Source of the DNA: a virus
Lineage: Duplodnaviria > Heunggongvirae > Uroviricota > Caudoviricetes
Strand: one strand, 5' to 3'
Virus record (IMG/VR): IMGVR_UViG_3300035208_002853
Span: 88,033-145,414 of that record
DNA length: 57,382 nt
Of the stretch, positions 10,323 through 19,807 are shown piece by piece (the stretch's first letter is position 1; each line of letters begins with the position of its first letter). A model generated the notes under the pieces. It worked only from the letters and a program-made list of their open reading frames with translations, was not told the origin of the DNA and did not search any database. Both the position numbers and the translations under genes were made by a program.

Positions 10323-10403
10323 TCAAGAAACCATTAAATATATTATATAAAGTTCCACTCCAATCACCGCAGACAAAATCAAATTTTTTATTAGATTATC
10401 CAT
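10323..10403 (-). CDS. 26-aa membrane micropeptide MDNLIKNLILSAVIGVELYIIYLMVS
   Basis: Manual translation; flanked by junction repeats. Confidence 0.7.
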   Translation of the reverse strand: MDNLIKNLILSAVIGVELYIIYLMVS

Positions 10404-14608: not shown

Positions 14609-15271
14609 ATGTTTGAAAAGAAAATTAAAATTAATAATGTTTTATATGACTTGAAGTATAATCCAAGTTCAAAATCTTGGATGTATCAAGAGTTAATATG
14701 TCAATGTGGTTGTGGAGGACATCTAATATATAACAAATGCCATAATCAAAATGGAATTCCTAAATATATTAAAAATCACTATTGCAAGGGTCCAATAGCA
14801 GAACAAAGGAAAGATGAATATAAACAATGGGAGAAGCAATTTGAGGGTGACTATTTGGAATATAAATATCAAATAGTAGAAGACTTTCAAAGGAGATCTT
14901 CGCGAGGAAGAGTTGGGGTCTATCATTCTTTAAAGACGAATACTTCATTATTTTATGCCTCTTCTTACGAAAAAAGAGCTATGGAAATTTTGGATACAGA
15001 TACAAACATCAAAACATATAGTAACTGTAAATTTTTTATAAATTACACAGATCCCGAAAAGAATAAAGTTCATAATTATTTTCCAGATATTTCTGCTGAA
15101 TATGAGACTGGCGAGAAAAAGATTATAGAAATAAAATCGGAATATCAAGTATTAGATCCAAAAAACCTCGCCAAGTTCGCAGCCGCCAGAGAATATTGCG
15201 GACAGAACAACCTTGAATTTGAAGTCTGGACTGAAAAAGATTTAGACCTTAAAAATAAGGGTTGTGGATGA
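14609..15271 (+). CDS. Free-standing TnsA-like PD-(D/E)xK endonuclease, putative homing endonuclease
   Basis: YFPDI...IIEIK...KFAAAREYC...FEVWTEKDL; N-terminal CQCGCG motif typical of viral homing endonucleases. Confidence 0.8.
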   Translation: MFEKKIKINNVLYDLKYNPSSKSWMYQELICQCGCGGHLIYNKCHNQNGIPKYIKNHYCKGPIAEQRKDEYKQWEKQFEGDYLEYKYQIVEDFQRRSSRGRVGVYHSLKTNTSLFYASSYEKRAMEILDTDTNIKTYSNCKFFINYTDPEKNKVHNYFPDISAEYETGEKKIIEIKSEYQVLDPKNLAKFAAAREYCGQNNLEFEVWTEKDLDLKNKGCG

Positions 15272-15364: not shown

Positions 15365-15667
15365 TATGGCGCATATACCTCTTCACAAGTTTATATTTTC
15401 TTCGTAAGTTATATTCCATTTATAAATTTTCATAAATTAACTATAACGGATGCCCACGATGAGAATCTAGTGAGGCCCAGTTATTCTCCTCCACCTAAAT
15501 GTTGCCACGAACTAAACCATTATTTAGCAATATTGTGGAACGGAGACATAACTACGTGCTGCGGAGACCTCGCCGGGGAGAATATTTGTGGGAACATTTT
15601 TAACAAAGGAATCGCGGGAGGAACGAGACGAGGCTCTCTTTGTGAGAAGTGTAATATTTATAGGTGA
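15365..15667 (+). pseudogene. Orphan SPASM/Twitch Fe-S domain, remnant of a second radical SAM gene
   Basis: C..L..YLAILWNGDITTCCGD...GNI...CEKC; no CxxxCxxC core; frame open back to a stop at 15362. Confidence 0.6.
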
Positions 15668-15720: not shown

Positions 15721-15735
15721 GATAACTTTATATAC
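15721..15735 (+). promoter_or_regulatory. BRE-TATA (GATAACTTTATATAC) for the leaderless precursor operon
   Basis: TATA 15727-15734, about 24 nt before ATG 15758. Confidence 0.65.
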
Positions 15736-15757: not shown

Positions 15758-16342
15758 ATGGCTTGCGGAGGGTATTCTGATCATTGTGATGTTTCCGGAT
15801 ATTATGTAGATTACCGCCCGCCGTTTTCGTATCAGAACACAACTTGTTATGTTTGGAGTAATACTAATGAGTGTGGGGAATCATATTTTGTTGACAATTC
15901 TGGATGTTATAAAAATATAAGTCATCACAACTATTCTAATTACGCAAATATACCTCATGACAATATAAATTTCAATAATGGTATATTTGGCAATGTTCCG
16001 TTTTCTAATTGGAGTAATTACACAAACTCTCCTCACGGAGATACCCCAAGTTGGAGTAATTATGTTTTTACTACAAACTGGTATAATCACTCCAACCACA
16101 GCAACAACTCGGGAAATTCTTACGTTCATATCAACTCAACGCCCCATACAGATTTGAGGCCTCATACAAACAATCCTCACGGAGACGATCCTTGGTATAA
16201 TTGGAGTAACTATCAAAATACTCCATTTAATAATGGTGTTTTCGGGAATACCCCATTTTATAATGACCCTTGGTATAATTGGAATAATTATGGGAACAGT
16301 CCATTTTCTGATTTTTGTAATCACACAGATACTTATATTTAG
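15758..16342 (+). CDS. Putative radical-SAM substrate: 194-aa protein of about 37 aromatic-X-Asn/Asp triplets (poly-triceptide precursor-like)
   Basis: Triplets such as WSN, WYN, FNN, FGN, YQN, HGD, HSN, HTD; directly upstream of an rSAM/SPASM gene; start at MACGG (ORF track 15713). Confidence 0.75.
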   Translation: MACGGYSDHCDVSGYYVDYRPPFSYQNTTCYVWSNTNECGESYFVDNSGCYKNISHHNYSNYANIPHDNINFNNGIFGNVPFSNWSNYTNSPHGDTPSWSNYVFTTNWYNHSNHSNNSGNSYVHINSTPHTDLRPHTNNPHGDDPWYNWSNYQNTPFNNGVFGNTPFYNDPWYNWNNYGNSPFSDFCNHTDTYI

Positions 16343-16357
16343 AGAGGATGTACATAT

Positions 16358-17599
16358 ATGTCTACAATTTTAATTTATCCAAAAACAACTTGCGAAGTTG
16401 GATGCGAATATTGTTTTTCTAAACCGAACGAAAAGCAAAATTATGATAAAGAAAAAATGATGGTAGTAATTAAAGAGGAAATCAGGAAAGATCGGATATC
16501 TAATAATGGCCACGATCCAACCGTTGTTTTGCACGGAGGAGAAATTTGTTTTCTTCCTTTAATTGATTTAGAATATTTTTTGAAAGAACTAGAAGATATC
16601 GGCATAATCTGTGGACTTCAAACATCATTAATGGGAATGACAAGGGATCACGTGAGACTTTTTAAAAAATATAAAGTGAGGATTGGAGTTTCGGTAGACG
16701 GCCCAAAAGAGTTGAATATTTTGAGGGGTCCAAGAAACGAAGGGCGGAATCGAGAATACCAAAACGAATTAATTGAAAACCTAAAAATACTAAAAGACGA
16801 AGGATTAAGATGGGGAACAATTTGTGTTCTTTCGAAAGCTAATGCGTCTAAAGAAAATCTTCCTGTTTTATTGAACTGGATAAGAGAAAATAAAATAGAA
16901 GCAAGATTTAATGCCATGTTTGTGCCTACTTTTGATTTACGTTTGTCAAAATGGATGTTATCTTGTGATGAATTAAAAAATGCTTGGATTGAAATATCTA
17001 GGGTCTCAATAGAAGAAAACCTTCCAAGTATTGATCCCACAAGAGATTATATTGAGTCTCTGCTTGGATACAGTACTGCATCTTGTTCTACGTCTTCTAA
17101 GTGTGACTACGCTACTACGGTATGTGTTACAGTTCTTGGAAACGGGGAAATTAGTAGATGTGATCGATGTTTACAAGATGGAGTTTATTTAAGATCTAAA
17201 GAAAAGAAAAGTACATCTAGAAGCGATATGTTAGAAAAAACCGAGTGTTCTGGGTGTAAATATTTTAATGTTTGTGGAGGAGGGTGTCCTTCTGAAGGTA
17301 TAGGTGGGGATTTTAGAAGAAAAACTTACTATTGTGAAGCTGTTTATGGAGTGTTTGAGTATTTAGAAAAACAGTTGCGGGGTATACTTCCAAATATAGT
17401 ACTCTCAATAGACGATCCAAATTATAAAAAAAATGAACCCTTTAATTGGTCAAGAAATATGCAACGTGGAACTCGTGGAAGTAGTCCACGCCCTCAAGAC
17501 TCCGACAAGCATCATCTTTGTGAACAGTCTGGGGAATGCCATGATAAAGGACACGCGAATTCTCCTCACGGGGACCATATGAATCATATTAATAGGTAG
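16358..17599 (+). CDS. Radical SAM/SPASM-domain peptide maturase with a His-X-Asn/Asp C-terminal tail
   Basis: CEVGCEYC (CxxxCxxC), LHGGE, SVDGP, SPASM C..C...CGGGC...C; ends HANSPHGDHMNHINR. Confidence 0.92.
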   Translation: MSTILIYPKTTCEVGCEYCFSKPNEKQNYDKEKMMVVIKEEIRKDRISNNGHDPTVVLHGGEICFLPLIDLEYFLKELEDIGIICGLQTSLMGMTRDHVRLFKKYKVRIGVSVDGPKELNILRGPRNEGRNREYQNELIENLKILKDEGLRWGTICVLSKANASKENLPVLLNWIRENKIEARFNAMFVPTFDLRLSKWMLSCDELKNAWIEISRVSIEENLPSIDPTRDYIESLLGYSTASCSTSSKCDYATTVCVTVLGNGEISRCDRCLQDGVYLRSKEKKSTSRSDMLEKTECSGCKYFNVCGGGCPSEGIGGDFRRKTYYCEAVYGVFEYLEKQLRGILPNIVLSIDDPNYKKNEPFNWSRNMQRGTRGSSPRPQDSDKHHLCEQSGECHDKGHANSPHGDHMNHINR

Positions 17600-17609
17600 G
17601 GAGAATAAT

Positions 17610-18407
17610 ATGTCAACTATTTTACCATCCAAATGGAATTCTTGGTTATACGAGTTTTCTAAAAAGGCTCAAATTCTTTTTTCAAGAACAGAATTTGAGA
17701 TGACTGCATCGGGGAAGAGAAAGGTTGGAACGCTTCATCTAGATCCGACCAACTTTGATACGCAACTGGAACAATTAACCAACAGGGGATTATGTTTTGT
17801 TCCAATTTTTAGATCTAAAAGAGTAGAAGGATTCAGTCATAATTTAGAAATTGAAGACAAAATATATAAAGATACAGTTGTTTATGGGGTGATTTCAACC
17901 AATTTAGAGTGCGCAAAAGAGTTTAGAGATTTATATAAAACCAAGGATTCCGTAATTAGTCCAGATCATAGAAAAATTGGAGATCTTTTGGGGTATCCTT
18001 CTTGTTGTTCGTCTTTTTTTGATGAGAATTTTAAAGATGACAAAGACCCTATTTTTAAGATGGCATCTAATTCGGACCCAGCATCAAAGAACTTTTGCTA
18101 TAAAATAAACAATCTTGTAAGAGAAAATGCTATCCATCTCAGATATTTTGGTTTTAGGGTTATACCTTGGGTTCCATGTTCATATTACTGCGGAGAAAGT
18201 TTGAAATATTCTAAACAGTGGATAGATTTAATGTATGAATTAGACCATGACGTTACCGAAAAATTACTGGAAATTCTATCAACTCCAGGCGAATTTAGTT
18301 TAGTAAACGGTCAAATGTTATGGAAATCTGATTTATTCATTGGAATGTGCGATGCGCTAGAGGATTATTATATTGAGCCCAGGAGAATAACAATTTCTGG
18401 TGAATAA
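17610..18407 (+). CDS. DUF483-like protein of unknown function
   Basis: IGDLLGYPSCC..FF and PWVPCSYYC motifs. Confidence 0.55.
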   Translation: MSTILPSKWNSWLYEFSKKAQILFSRTEFEMTASGKRKVGTLHLDPTNFDTQLEQLTNRGLCFVPIFRSKRVEGFSHNLEIEDKIYKDTVVYGVISTNLECAKEFRDLYKTKDSVISPDHRKIGDLLGYPSCCSSFFDENFKDDKDPIFKMASNSDPASKNFCYKINNLVRENAIHLRYFGFRVIPWVPCSYYCGESLKYSKQWIDLMYELDHDVTEKLLEILSTPGEFSLVNGQMLWKSDLFIGMCDALEDYYIEPRRITISGE

Positions 18408-19205
18408 ATGACCAAAACAAACATTGCCGGAATTTTTACAATAAGAAACGCGGTTGATGCTGGATATCCGTTCGTAGAGTCTATTTTATCCGCACTTTCT
18501 TTTTGTGATTCTATTCTTGTAAACGACGGAGGCTCAAATGATGGAACCCTTCAATACCTTTTTAAGTTGAAAGAATTATATCCACAAATTAAAATATATA
18601 AAATTCTAGACGTAGGGAAAGTTCGCTGGCAAGCTATAGATGATGTTTTGAATGTATTAATTAAAAAGGTTGATACTGATTGGATATTTGAACTCCAGGG
18701 CGACGAAATGTTTCACGAAAAAGATGTAAATTTAATAAAAAATATAATAAACAATACAAAATGTAATGGAATTCGTAGCTCTCGTGTAGATTTAACTTCG
18801 TGGGATACAGATGTAAATAAACCTACATATAAAATGGGAACCATGAGATTAGTAAGAAATATTGATGGTCTTACCTCTGACTGGGGAGGCGATCATTTTA
18901 CTATAAATCATAACCCTTTTCCAAGAAAAGGGTTTACTCTTCATAATGTTCCACCCGAATATGACGCCCTAAACTTAAACTTATATCATTTTTGTGATAT
19001 ATTCCCTGGAAATTCAAAAATTAAAGCGAAAAGACATGCCGAACATCTTGCGTGTACTGCTCCAGAAAGAATAAGCGCTTATGATTCAAGAAAAAATTCT
19101 CATATTCATAAAACACAATCAAAAAATATAAGTCAATTTCCTTTGTTAATGCAAGGATTATGCGGCTCGCAATATTACAATGTAAGGGAAGAATTGTTGA
19201 AATGA
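18408..19205 (+). CDS. Glycosyltransferase family 2 (GT-A fold)
   Basis: YPFVESILS...CDSILVNDGGSNDGT...DWIFELQGDE. Confidence 0.85.
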   Translation: MTKTNIAGIFTIRNAVDAGYPFVESILSALSFCDSILVNDGGSNDGTLQYLFKLKELYPQIKIYKILDVGKVRWQAIDDVLNVLIKKVDTDWIFELQGDEMFHEKDVNLIKNIINNTKCNGIRSSRVDLTSWDTDVNKPTYKMGTMRLVRNIDGLTSDWGGDHFTINHNPFPRKGFTLHNVPPEYDALNLNLYHFCDIFPGNSKIKAKRHAEHLACTAPERISAYDSRKNSHIHKTQSKNISQFPLLMQGLCGSQYYNVREELLK

Positions 19206-19807
19206 TAATTGAATTAGGGGATTATGAAGCGGAAATAAATTGCTTATATTGCGGTAGAACGGAGTATACTGAACAATTGGTATATCCACGCCAAGGACGC
19301 GACAGGAATGGGCAAATAAAAAGTAATTTGTTCGGAGTGTATGCCACTCAGTATAAAGAAGTTGCCGCGTCTCATGCCGTAACATTTAACGTTGACGGGT
19401 TTGTAGAGTTTAATAAATATGGATATCTTTATATATTAAACCCAGACGATTTTGTCCAGTTAGATTCCTGGCGATTCATAAGTTATGATCCAGTAAAGCC
19501 TATTACATTTGAAATTGTTAAACCAATAGAATATTTACATAATATATTAAACGGAGAATGGCAAGGAACAACCTCTTATGGAACTAAAAAATTGGTATTA
19601 AAATTTAATTCATCAAAAACTATAAAAACAGAGAAGGATGATTATATGATAAATGAGTTGAGCGATCCAAAAGTTGTTGCTAAAGAAATTTTACATAATG
19701 AAATTTTGGAAGTTATAGATAAATTTGAAGAAGGTAAAATAGAACCCAGTATTTTGTGCGATATGTTAAGAAAGCTTGATAAAAATTGGGAAGAGTTCAT
19801 TGAGTGA
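19202..19807 (+). CDS. Hypothetical protein
   Basis: ATGA-coupled to GT2; CLYCG motif (ORF track start 19160). Confidence 0.6.
   Translation: MIIELGDYEAEINCLYCGRTEYTEQLVYPRQGRDRNGQIKSNLFGVYATQYKEVAASHAVTFNVDGFVEFNKYGYLYILNPDDFVQLDSWRFISYDPVKPITFEIVKPIEYLHNILNGEWQGTTSYGTKKLVLKFNSSKTIKTEKDDYMINELSDPKVVAKEILHNEILEVIDKFEEGKIEPSILCDMLRKLDKNWEEFIE

Follow-up and report, generated by a model that had tools for sequence, protein, structure and literature searches.

The window analysed here is a stretch of 57,382 nucleotides from a virus of the class Caudoviricetes (positions 88,033 to 145,414 of IMG/VR record IMGVR_UViG_3300035208_002853). Our subject is the open reading frame (ORF) at 16358 to 17599 of this window, which encodes a radical S-adenosylmethionine (SAM)/SPASM enzyme that ends in a short sequence resembling a motif of the repeat protein encoded directly upstream. 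The repeat protein gene, the enzyme gene and its parts, and a third gene encoding a DUF483-like protein are laid out as follows.

15758 to 16342, plus strand: repeat protein resembling a substrate, 194 amino acids counted from its ATG, rich in Asn, Ser, Tyr, Thr and His, with NSPHGD encoded at nucleotides 16025-16042 (from motif counts and homologues)
16358 to 17599, plus strand: radical SAM/SPASM enzyme, 413 amino acids plus stop codon (from Pfam and NCBIfam matches, homologues, an AlphaFold2 (AF2) model and fold matches)
16391 to 16414, plus strand: CxxxCxxC radical SAM cluster motif of the enzyme, C12/C16/C19 (from the ORF sequence and alignment)
17084 to 17335, plus strand: SPASM region of the enzyme, C243 to C326, with an invariant C268-D269-R270 that matches the anSME 'PCD' motif (from alignment)
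17474 to 17557, plus strand: polar low-confidence linker of the enzyme, residues 373-400, holding C388 and C394 (from AF2 confidence and sequence)
17558 to 17596, plus strand: substrate-like tail of the enzyme, NSPHGDHMNHINR, residues 401-413, predicted to lie inside the catalytic barrel (from the sequence match, conservation, complex prediction and AF2)
17610 to 18407, plus strand: DUF483-like partner, 265 amino acids, with invariant GYPxCC and PC...C cysteines (from a family match, alignment and an AF2 model)

The enzyme terminates in ...GHANSPHGDHMNHINR. A first-pass annotation of this DNA had reported this ending, four H-X-N/D triplets within it and the hexapeptide NSPHGD held in common with the upstream protein, and the ORF translations bear out all three. 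The triplets (HAN 399, HGD 404, HMN 407 and HIN 410) fall within residues 399-412 and there are no others in the whole enzyme. The hexapeptide occupies residues 401-406 of the enzyme (nucleotides 17558-17575); the DNA encoding its two copies agrees at 15 of 18 bases, and none of the three differences changes an amino acid. Such a shared hexapeptide arose in approximately 0.1% of 20,000 composition-preserving shuffles, whether the whole enzyme or only its 68-residue tail was used. The annotation had also placed a polar linker after the last SPASM cysteine. A linker does exist, at residues 373-400, but alignment and the AF2 model show that residues 327-372, past the last SPASM cysteine, belong to the conserved and confidently folded part of the enzyme. 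The SPASM cysteine pattern itself is present as described (C243, C249, C268, C297, C300, C306, C310 and C326, all invariant, like the CxxxCxxC motif, among the 36 relatives that were aligned); the linker holds two further cysteines, C388 and C394.

The observation holds, and it extends further than the first-pass annotation could tell. A word-indexed search returned 38 homologues at 32-100% identity, and 441 matches below 1e-30 came from searching 1.84 billion cluster representatives with a profile. Tails were counted in the 156 unfused members with a recognisable SPASM motif, which reach down to 27% identity and come mostly from phage contexts (the Thermus phages Cumys and phiLo among them), using 176 ORFs from the same loci as the background. 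At least one H-x-D follows the SPASM region in 106 of the 156 relatives, compared with 21 of the 176 background ORFs, and at least two are found in 85 relatives compared with 2 background ORFs. The final H-x-D stands a median of 5.5 residues from the C-terminus. Most of the 38 homologues terminate in [P/E]HGD(H) motifs, for example EHGDHYD...RPHGDHYDE, and the motif is kept at IMG/VR loci of only 27% identity (L018, VPHGDVPHGDVPHGDHTD; L017, EHGDAHGDHTD) and in cultured Thermus phages, where Cumys has the tail EHGDYTDHGDAPHGDHWDG and phiLo has several HGD/HxD units. Variant tails consist of GIEH-x-DG..RHLDG repeats in some relatives and end in CGCGK in others, often with a single H-x-D-S slightly upstream; alternative tails in sub-clades end in CGCGK/CSCGR. 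One could argue that the resemblance between tail and upstream protein is a matter of chance or composition, or a scar of recombination between neighbouring genes, and has no function: both sequences are of low complexity and rich in Asn, His and Asp, and the common stretch is only six residues long. The shuffles (about 0.001), the synonymous nature of all three DNA differences and the survival of the motif both among relatives that are 27-33% identical and among cultured Thermus phages speak against this. We regard such an origin as extremely improbable, and essentially excluded because the motif is conserved throughout the family.

The upstream protein, whose true start is most likely the ATG at 15758, contains 11 P-[HFYW]-x-[DN] motifs where shuffles predict 0.97. 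Its homologues lie immediately 5' of the radical SAM gene at loci L003, L005-L012, L023, L024 and L025, and nearly every locus has a separate protein rich in aromatic-x-Asp/Asn adjoining the enzyme. The gene order repeat protein, radical SAM enzyme, DUF483-like protein is common to more than 20 loci from unrelated phages, which supports the enzyme-substrate relationship that had been proposed from the shared hexapeptide. A precursor with repeated aromatic-X-X motifs next to its enzyme, the arrangement expected of a triceptide system, is found here and at more than 20 loci. The repeat proteins of the relatives carry 18 to 92 H-x-D/N motifs and are up to 997 amino acids long. Among 14 substrates, the position that follows Pro or Ala and precedes Asp or Asn by two is His in 56% of cases, Phe in 19%, Trp in 7% and Tyr in 7%, making it 89% aromatic; this exchange of His with Phe, Trp and Tyr favours ring cross-linking over metal binding. 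The small repeat proteins share an N-terminal ...HCD/HCN motif and a C-terminal ...FCNHTD... motif, and these conserved ends indicate a true protein family, something more than low-complexity sequence. No conserved leader was seen in the repeat proteins of the loci examined: instead of short leader-core precursor peptides, the substrates are proteins of 135-997 amino acids, several of them with folded N-terminal domains.

In several phages the protein that would be modified is encoded within tail or baseplate gene modules. The Cumys_13 repeat gene comes after genes annotated as baseplate and tail collar fibre, and at L003 the module comes after the tape measure gene. Public gene calls misframe the gene upstream of the radical SAM gene at L024 (2700-3480) and L025 (900-1712), where reading all frames recovers homologues of the repeat protein with an MACG..HCN start and an ...FCNH[ST]D end; repeat proteins are probably under-called in the databases. 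Among the larger substrates, the H-x-D array is preceded by two to three copies of a motif of about 35 amino acids, GS[IVA]W[IV][DE]G..L.Y[IL]D..G..R (L021:4928-5959, which is Cumys_13; L015:4306-4962; L017:3371-4171; L027:1699-2310). These copies may form a folded domain by which a fibre-like protein is anchored or trimerises; Pfam gave no match in Cumys_13.

The enzyme belongs to the radical SAM superfamily by its PF04055 match (49.8 bits against a cut-off of 29.5) and its C12/C16/C19 motif. It has a SPASM domain by its eight invariant cysteines, a pattern that includes CxxCx5CxxxC and is typical of domains for two auxiliary 4Fe-4S clusters, and by a fold that superposes on anSME over 375-388 alignment columns, with the TIGR04085 hidden Markov model (HMM) just under its threshold (25.0 against 27). 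Its top NCBIfam matches are all maturases of peptides or proteins (DynA 91.7 bits, anSME 76.6, AmcB 73, TIGR04083 69 and YhhB 67.5), and all are far under their family cut-offs. The AF2 model has a predicted local distance difference test (pLDDT) score of 85.7 and its nearest folds are anSMEcpe and ChlB, with TM-scores of 0.64-0.69 normalised to the query and 0.72-0.76 normalised to the target. C268-D269 aligns with the anSME PCD motif, the Asp of which was reportedly proposed as the catalytic base in the anSME structure paper. The first-pass annotation had assigned the enzyme to the peptide-modifying radical SAM/SPASM class, and had accepted that its reading would fall if the enzyme grouped with radical SAM proteins that do not act on peptides and the tail stayed unmodified or was not conserved. 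The PF04055 score and the anSME and ChlB folds uphold the assignment: the nearest matches are peptide maturases and the tail is found family-wide, so the case of an unconserved tail on a non-peptide enzyme can be set aside.

A further check suggested at that stage was to model the tail in the active site. Complex prediction was carried out with the enzyme core (residues 1-374), the tail (residues 375-413), three 4Fe-4S clusters and SAM, in three runs with three controls. The interface score ipSAE was 0.68, 0.07 and 0.81 (median 0.68), compared with 0.02 for the best of the three controls; the mark used for this score is attained by 58 of 80 solved complexes and by 2 of 110 mismatched pairs, a calibration that is approximate here because of our own alignment and the riding ligands. 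At least 60% of contacts are common to the runs, and the partner pLDDT is 36-49. The confident interface consists of exactly residues 401-413, placed in the catalytic barrel against the barrel strands and an auxiliary-cluster loop, and on the enzyme side it involves H59 (in the LHGGE SAM-binding motif), Q88, G110, G153, R183, N185, C243 and C268-D269-R270, all of them invariant or nearly so. D406 is predicted to pair with D269/R270 and with residues 88, 155 and 185, and H404 with residues 3, 5, 55, 57, 243, 256 and 268. In the AF2 model of the full-length protein the pLDDT is below 50 throughout the tail save for SPHGDH (residues 402-407), where positions 404 and 407 form beta-bridges.

With moderate confidence, we favour an anSME/triceptide-like enzyme whose target for cross-linking is the repeat protein and whose tethered tail acts as a pseudo-substrate or a self-substrate. 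The ORF would be the catalytic gene of a conserved phage module made up of the repeat protein, the radical SAM/SPASM enzyme and the DUF483-like partner, in that order, and the enzyme would have an anSME/ChlB fold and would lack a separate peptide-recognition (RRE) domain. Most probably, the C-beta hydrogen of Asp or Asn would be abstracted and that carbon joined to the ring of the His, Phe, Trp or Tyr two residues upstream. This would be three-residue cyclophane chemistry of the kind performed by triceptide synthases, with many P-aromatic-x-[D/N] sites in the repeat protein as its targets. The last 13 residues, borne on a disordered linker of about 28 residues, would amount to a tethered copy of the core motif (P-H-G-D) that folds back into the barrel of its own enzyme in a substrate-like pose. 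The tail might then be a pseudo-substrate, filling and shielding the active site until it is displaced by the repeat protein, or it might be a self-substrate and become cross-linked itself. The sequence features, their family-wide conservation, the gene linkage and the model-predicted docking we take as established, and it is from these that we infer the chemistry and any modification of the tail.

A bolder version of the second option is possible, and we offer it tentatively, as something we doubt more than we believe. The enzyme would cross-link its own C-terminal H-G-D and so be the first self-modifying radical SAM enzyme, with the fusion architecture of a borosin. P0035, P0050 and P0156, relatives with some 9 to 24 H-x-D units on the enzyme, would count as complete fusions of enzyme and substrate, and in phages the stapling of a virion protein at dozens of sites would be under the control of the auto-modified tail, or timed by it.

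Several observations weigh against the reading that we favour. About one third of the relatives (50 of the 156 unfused members) have no H-x-D tail, which means that the tail is dispensable for catalysis, and the L025 enzyme has none though its substrate retains H-T-D motifs. Glycine fills the middle position of the motif in 46% of tails, compared with 15% in substrates, and the tails are rich in the metal ligands His, Asp and Cys. Co-variation between the flanks of the tails and those of the substrates was sought and none was found; only the H-x-D core is common to both, and GIEH-x-DG..RHLDG tails, for example, stand beside substrates of the HSDWS type. One of the three docking runs scored only 0.07 and the pLDDT of the tail itself is below 50. 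Radical SAM enzymes have been solved in complex with peptides (anSME, ChlB and SuiB), and the docking result may partly reflect likeness to these structures; that likeness can also be seen as the point itself, in that the tail is modelled like a substrate. Finally, the H-x-D motif has been lost from 8 of 11 proteins in which the radical SAM and DUF483-like domains are fused, compared with 50 of the 156 unfused relatives (Fisher p = 0.017, or p = 0.004 when at least two H-x-D are required).

The composition of the tails invites the proposal that the C-terminus, with its many His, Asp and Cys residues, binds a metal (Fe, Zn or Ni) and is not an active-site ligand at all. It might, for example, supply or shield the three Fe-S clusters, or form bridges through a shared metal ion to the His/Asp arrays of the repeat protein. 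The tails are indeed composed of metal-ligand residues, 52 of 106 tails have a Cys no more than 30 amino acids upstream of the first HxD, alternative tails in sub-clades end in CGCGK/CSCGR and the frequent middle-position Gly would give a flexible chelating loop. However, Phe, Trp and Tyr stand in for His, in register, in the substrate motif that the tail copies, a single HGD such as the one found here would be a weak chelator, and the controlled model puts the tail in the catalytic barrel. We consider a metal-binding role unlikely.

The losses among the fused proteins bear on another possibility, namely that the tail is a docking peptide for the DUF483-like partner, which would be a reader of H-x-D or a second modifying enzyme, and would keep the two enzymes joined, or that it recruits the enzyme onto the repeat array. 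The radical SAM and DUF483-like genes are adjacent at nearly all loci, with the DUF483-like gene downstream throughout L002-L016, and they are fused in at least 11 relatives (P0027, P0086, P0127, P0148, P0149, P0153, P0157, P0158, P0170 and P0179 among them). On fusion, the motif is usually lost. But P0027 is an exception, a fusion whose linker retains Cys...HIDHYD, and the losses are explained equally well if the tail needs a free and flexible C-terminus to reach the barrel; they fit either account. The fold of the partner gave no informative match. A role towards the partner is, in our estimation, quite unlikely.

Long tails raise the question of a true fused core peptide of the borosin kind: the tail, as the product-forming substrate, would undergo cross-linking in cis before being released or put to use, and the main substrate would not be the upstream protein. 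Such arrays are found on the enzymes P0035 (eight consecutive H-x-D/N triplets, making nine xHG[D/N] units), P0050 (nine HGD) and P0156 (24 H-x-D in a tail of 318 amino acids); enzyme-core fusions are known from the borosins (PMC7878506); and no separate H-x-D repeat protein was found in any of the six frames of the L002 and L029 contigs, which are short (6.7 kb and 9.6 kb). P0152 and P0156 have long tails yet both keep separate genes for repeat proteins, and for them we rejected the proposal that a long tail stands in for the separate substrate; the short L002 and L029 contigs are excepted from this. A fused core as the main product, which the first-pass annotation had entertained, is unlikely, given that the gene immediately upstream encodes a separate repeat protein carrying 11 P-aromatic-x-[D/N] motifs. 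A separate and far larger repeat protein likewise adjoins the enzyme at almost all of the other loci, the module has no gene for a protease or for export and one third of the family lacks the tail. A fused core peptide in this full sense seems to us very unlikely.

Returning to the enzyme with a tethered pseudo-substrate or self-substrate, its significance would lie in how the active site is controlled. Radical SAM peptide maturases normally rely on a leader peptide and a recognition domain to locate their substrates; a tethered copy of the substrate motif that occupies the active site of its own enzyme would, if true, gate or prime radical chemistry in a new way. In the literature that we searched, an active-site-occupying, substrate-like tail appears not to have been described for this enzyme class, and enzymatic ring-stapling of a phage structural protein is unreported. 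No paper was found that describes a radical SAM enzyme with such a tail or a phage tail protein modified by a radical SAM enzyme, although coverage of the literature was incomplete and this is weak evidence. The tail also serves as an internal label that ties the enzyme to proteins with H-x-D or aromatic-x-Asp/Asn repeats, and we therefore argue that this widespread phage module modifies a protein, contrary to the published guess that it modifies DNA (PMC11437467). The module is carried by the cultured Thermus phages Cumys, phiMa and phiLo, which makes it accessible to experiment.

The DUF483-like partner gave an AF2 model with a pLDDT of 83. Searches of this fold against the PDB produced weak matches only, to the cysteine methyltransferase NleE (Foldseek E 0.05; VIA Z 4.8; root-mean-square deviation (rmsd) 3.0 Å over 105 residues) and to 2guk (Z 5.7; rmsd 3.9 Å over 109 residues), and searches of AFDB returned solely other DUF483 proteins and radical SAM fusions. 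At a distant locus (L028:8926-10722) the partner is fused to an alpha-ketoglutarate (aKG)-HExxH peptide beta-hydroxylase domain (TIGR04267, 50.2 bits against a cut-off of 40), a fusion that indicates protein modification over DNA modification. At L030:3883-5151 the partner carries a C-terminal domain whose glycine motif, judged by eye and with no family match, resembles that of SAM methyltransferases; a stand-alone HExxH protein of that locus (1656-2498) matches TIGR04267 weakly, under the cut-off. L002 (2815-3492) and L029 (7089-7742), of the lineage whose enzymes bear some nine HG[D/N] units (P0035 and P0050), encode a protein of about 220 amino acids with the sulfatase/alkaline-phosphatase fold and an F[S/A]DHGD metal-site motif, together with a family 2 glycosyltransferase (GT2). 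The radical SAM enzyme P0169, a protein of 745 amino acids from the profile search, has an insert of approximately 330 residues that is absent from other members and splits the N-terminal cluster-binding region, with CYQEP... resuming after ...SHN; judging by its sequence, the insert looks like an intein.

Two further features flank the three genes of the module.

15724 to 15734, plus strand: promoter-like 11-mer AACTTTATATA, 24 nucleotides 5' of the ATG of the repeat protein; it also precedes other plus-strand genes in the window
18408 to 19205, plus strand: GT2-like glycosyltransferase, present together with the module in close relatives as well as in the L002/L023/L024/L029 lineages

The glycosyltransferase gene is overlapped at its end by an ORF of 215 amino acids (19160-19807, plus strand) that has no family match; it is found at 66-75% identity directly after the glycosyltransferase gene in L006-L010 and may be a fifth gene of the module in the lineage of the window. 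Upstream, the 11-mer occurs at 15724, 14424, 22481 and 32753 on the plus strand, where it recurs ahead of genes, and at 10344 on the minus strand. A 13-mer, TAGATTAAATAGT, is found three times on the plus strand (12617, 15310 and 15701). Both look like promoter or regulatory motifs. Two of the copies of the 13-mer flank an ORF of 65 amino acids (15470-15667, plus strand) in which only the C-terminal end of a second and smaller radical SAM enzyme survives; an intact version of 266 amino acids with the same ending, ...CHELNHYL..LWNGDITTCCGDLAG..CNIYR, is present in L006-L009 (3089-3889). The remnant sits just 3' of a gene for a TnsA-like endonuclease (14609-15271). The window is phage DNA, with genes for a tape measure protein and a major head protein. 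It comes from a contig in an assembly of 6.25 Mb, and a methanogen host is unlikely because McrA is absent from the genome.

Among known systems, the best structural match to the enzyme is anSMEcpe (PDB 4K36-4K39; TM-scores 0.64-0.67 by query and 0.72-0.76 by target), which is also its best PDB profile match at 82 bits. The two share the lack of an RRE domain, direct binding of the peptide in the barrel (a prediction for the enzyme here) and a C-D pair past the third auxiliary-cluster Cys (C268-D269 here). The enzyme nonetheless falls outside the anSME family: TIGR03942 scores 76.6 bits against a cut-off of 349, the module in the window has neither a sulfatase nor the C/S-x-P-x-R motif, and the sulfatase-fold genes of L002 and L029 lack that motif too. 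Nor does anSME have a substrate-like tail. The best NCBIfam match, DynA (NF041298), aligns over the full length at 91.7 bits, short of the equivalog cut-off of 450. DynA links Trp to the C-beta of Asn and the His nitrogen to the C-beta of Tyr, and so employs both the C-beta of Asn and the ring of His. It differs from the enzyme described here in that it turns a short leader-core peptide into an antibiotic and has no copy of the motif at its C-terminus.

The triceptide synthases (HaaB, HtkB, YhhB, ChlB, XyeB, GrrM/OscB and FxsB; PMC11499958) are like this enzyme in their radical SAM/SPASM architecture and anSME-like fold, with ChlB (9gm3) giving TM-scores of 0.68/0.74, and in having a neighbouring substrate with repeated aromatic-X-X motifs. 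Three-residue cyclophanes of His (HAA, HNR and HTK), in which His-C2 is joined to the C-beta of residue 3, are known from experiment, and HtkB tolerates Phe and Trp in place of His (PMC11499958). Unlike those systems, the phage module has a protein-sized substrate, Asp or Asn at position 3, phage-borne genes and an obligatory DUF483-like partner, and the enzyme bears the motif at its own C-terminus, which has not been reported for any triceptide synthase in the literature searched. The curated maturase models all score far below their cut-offs (AmcB 73/425, YhhB 67.5/445, GrrM 47/310, FxsB 44/370 and XyeB 24/450). The enzyme resembles a triceptide synthase or anSME yet falls under every curated family threshold, and it probably acts on proteins rather than on leader-core peptides.

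In the borosins (OphMA type; PMC7878506), the one established case of an enzyme-core fusion among RiPPs (peptides that are ribosomally synthesised and modified post-translationally), the enzyme autocatalytically modifies its own C-terminal core peptide. Here too a core motif stands at the C-terminus of the modifying enzyme (NSPHGDHMNHINR, at 401-413), but borosins perform SAM-dependent N-methylation of the backbone with another fold and in another range of hosts, and they have no separate precursor gene, whereas one is present here (15758-16342) and at the loci of nearly all of the relatives. The HXS antiphage system, HxsA-D, in which radical SAM enzymes mature a protein-sized effector with His-Xaa-Ser repeats (Nat Commun 2026, PMC13128918), provides a precedent for radical SAM maturation of His-x-X repeat proteins as distinct from small peptides. 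It differs in being a bacterial defence system with two radical SAM enzymes plus HxsD, in its H-x-S repeats and in having no described enzyme tail; the HxsB HMM scores 27 bits on the enzyme here against a cut-off of 370.

A further known system is the 'rSAM module' of the Thermus phages Cumys and phiMa. In the one paper on it that our searches found (Viruses 2024;16:1410, PMC11437467), three linked genes were noted, their function was left open and DNA modification was suggested; neither the H-x-D repeats nor the tail are described there. A role in DNA modification is unsupported given the peptide-maturase fold, the linkage to the repeat protein and the fusion to an aKG-HExxH peptide hydroxylase. 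The linked genes that characterise that module (a protein, a radical SAM enzyme and a DUF483-domain protein) span 15758-18407 in our window, and Cumys has the same three in the same order: Cumys_13, with 54 H-x-D/N motifs, the radical SAM enzyme Cumys_12, which is 29% identical to the enzyme here and carries the tail given above, and the DUF483 protein Cumys_11.

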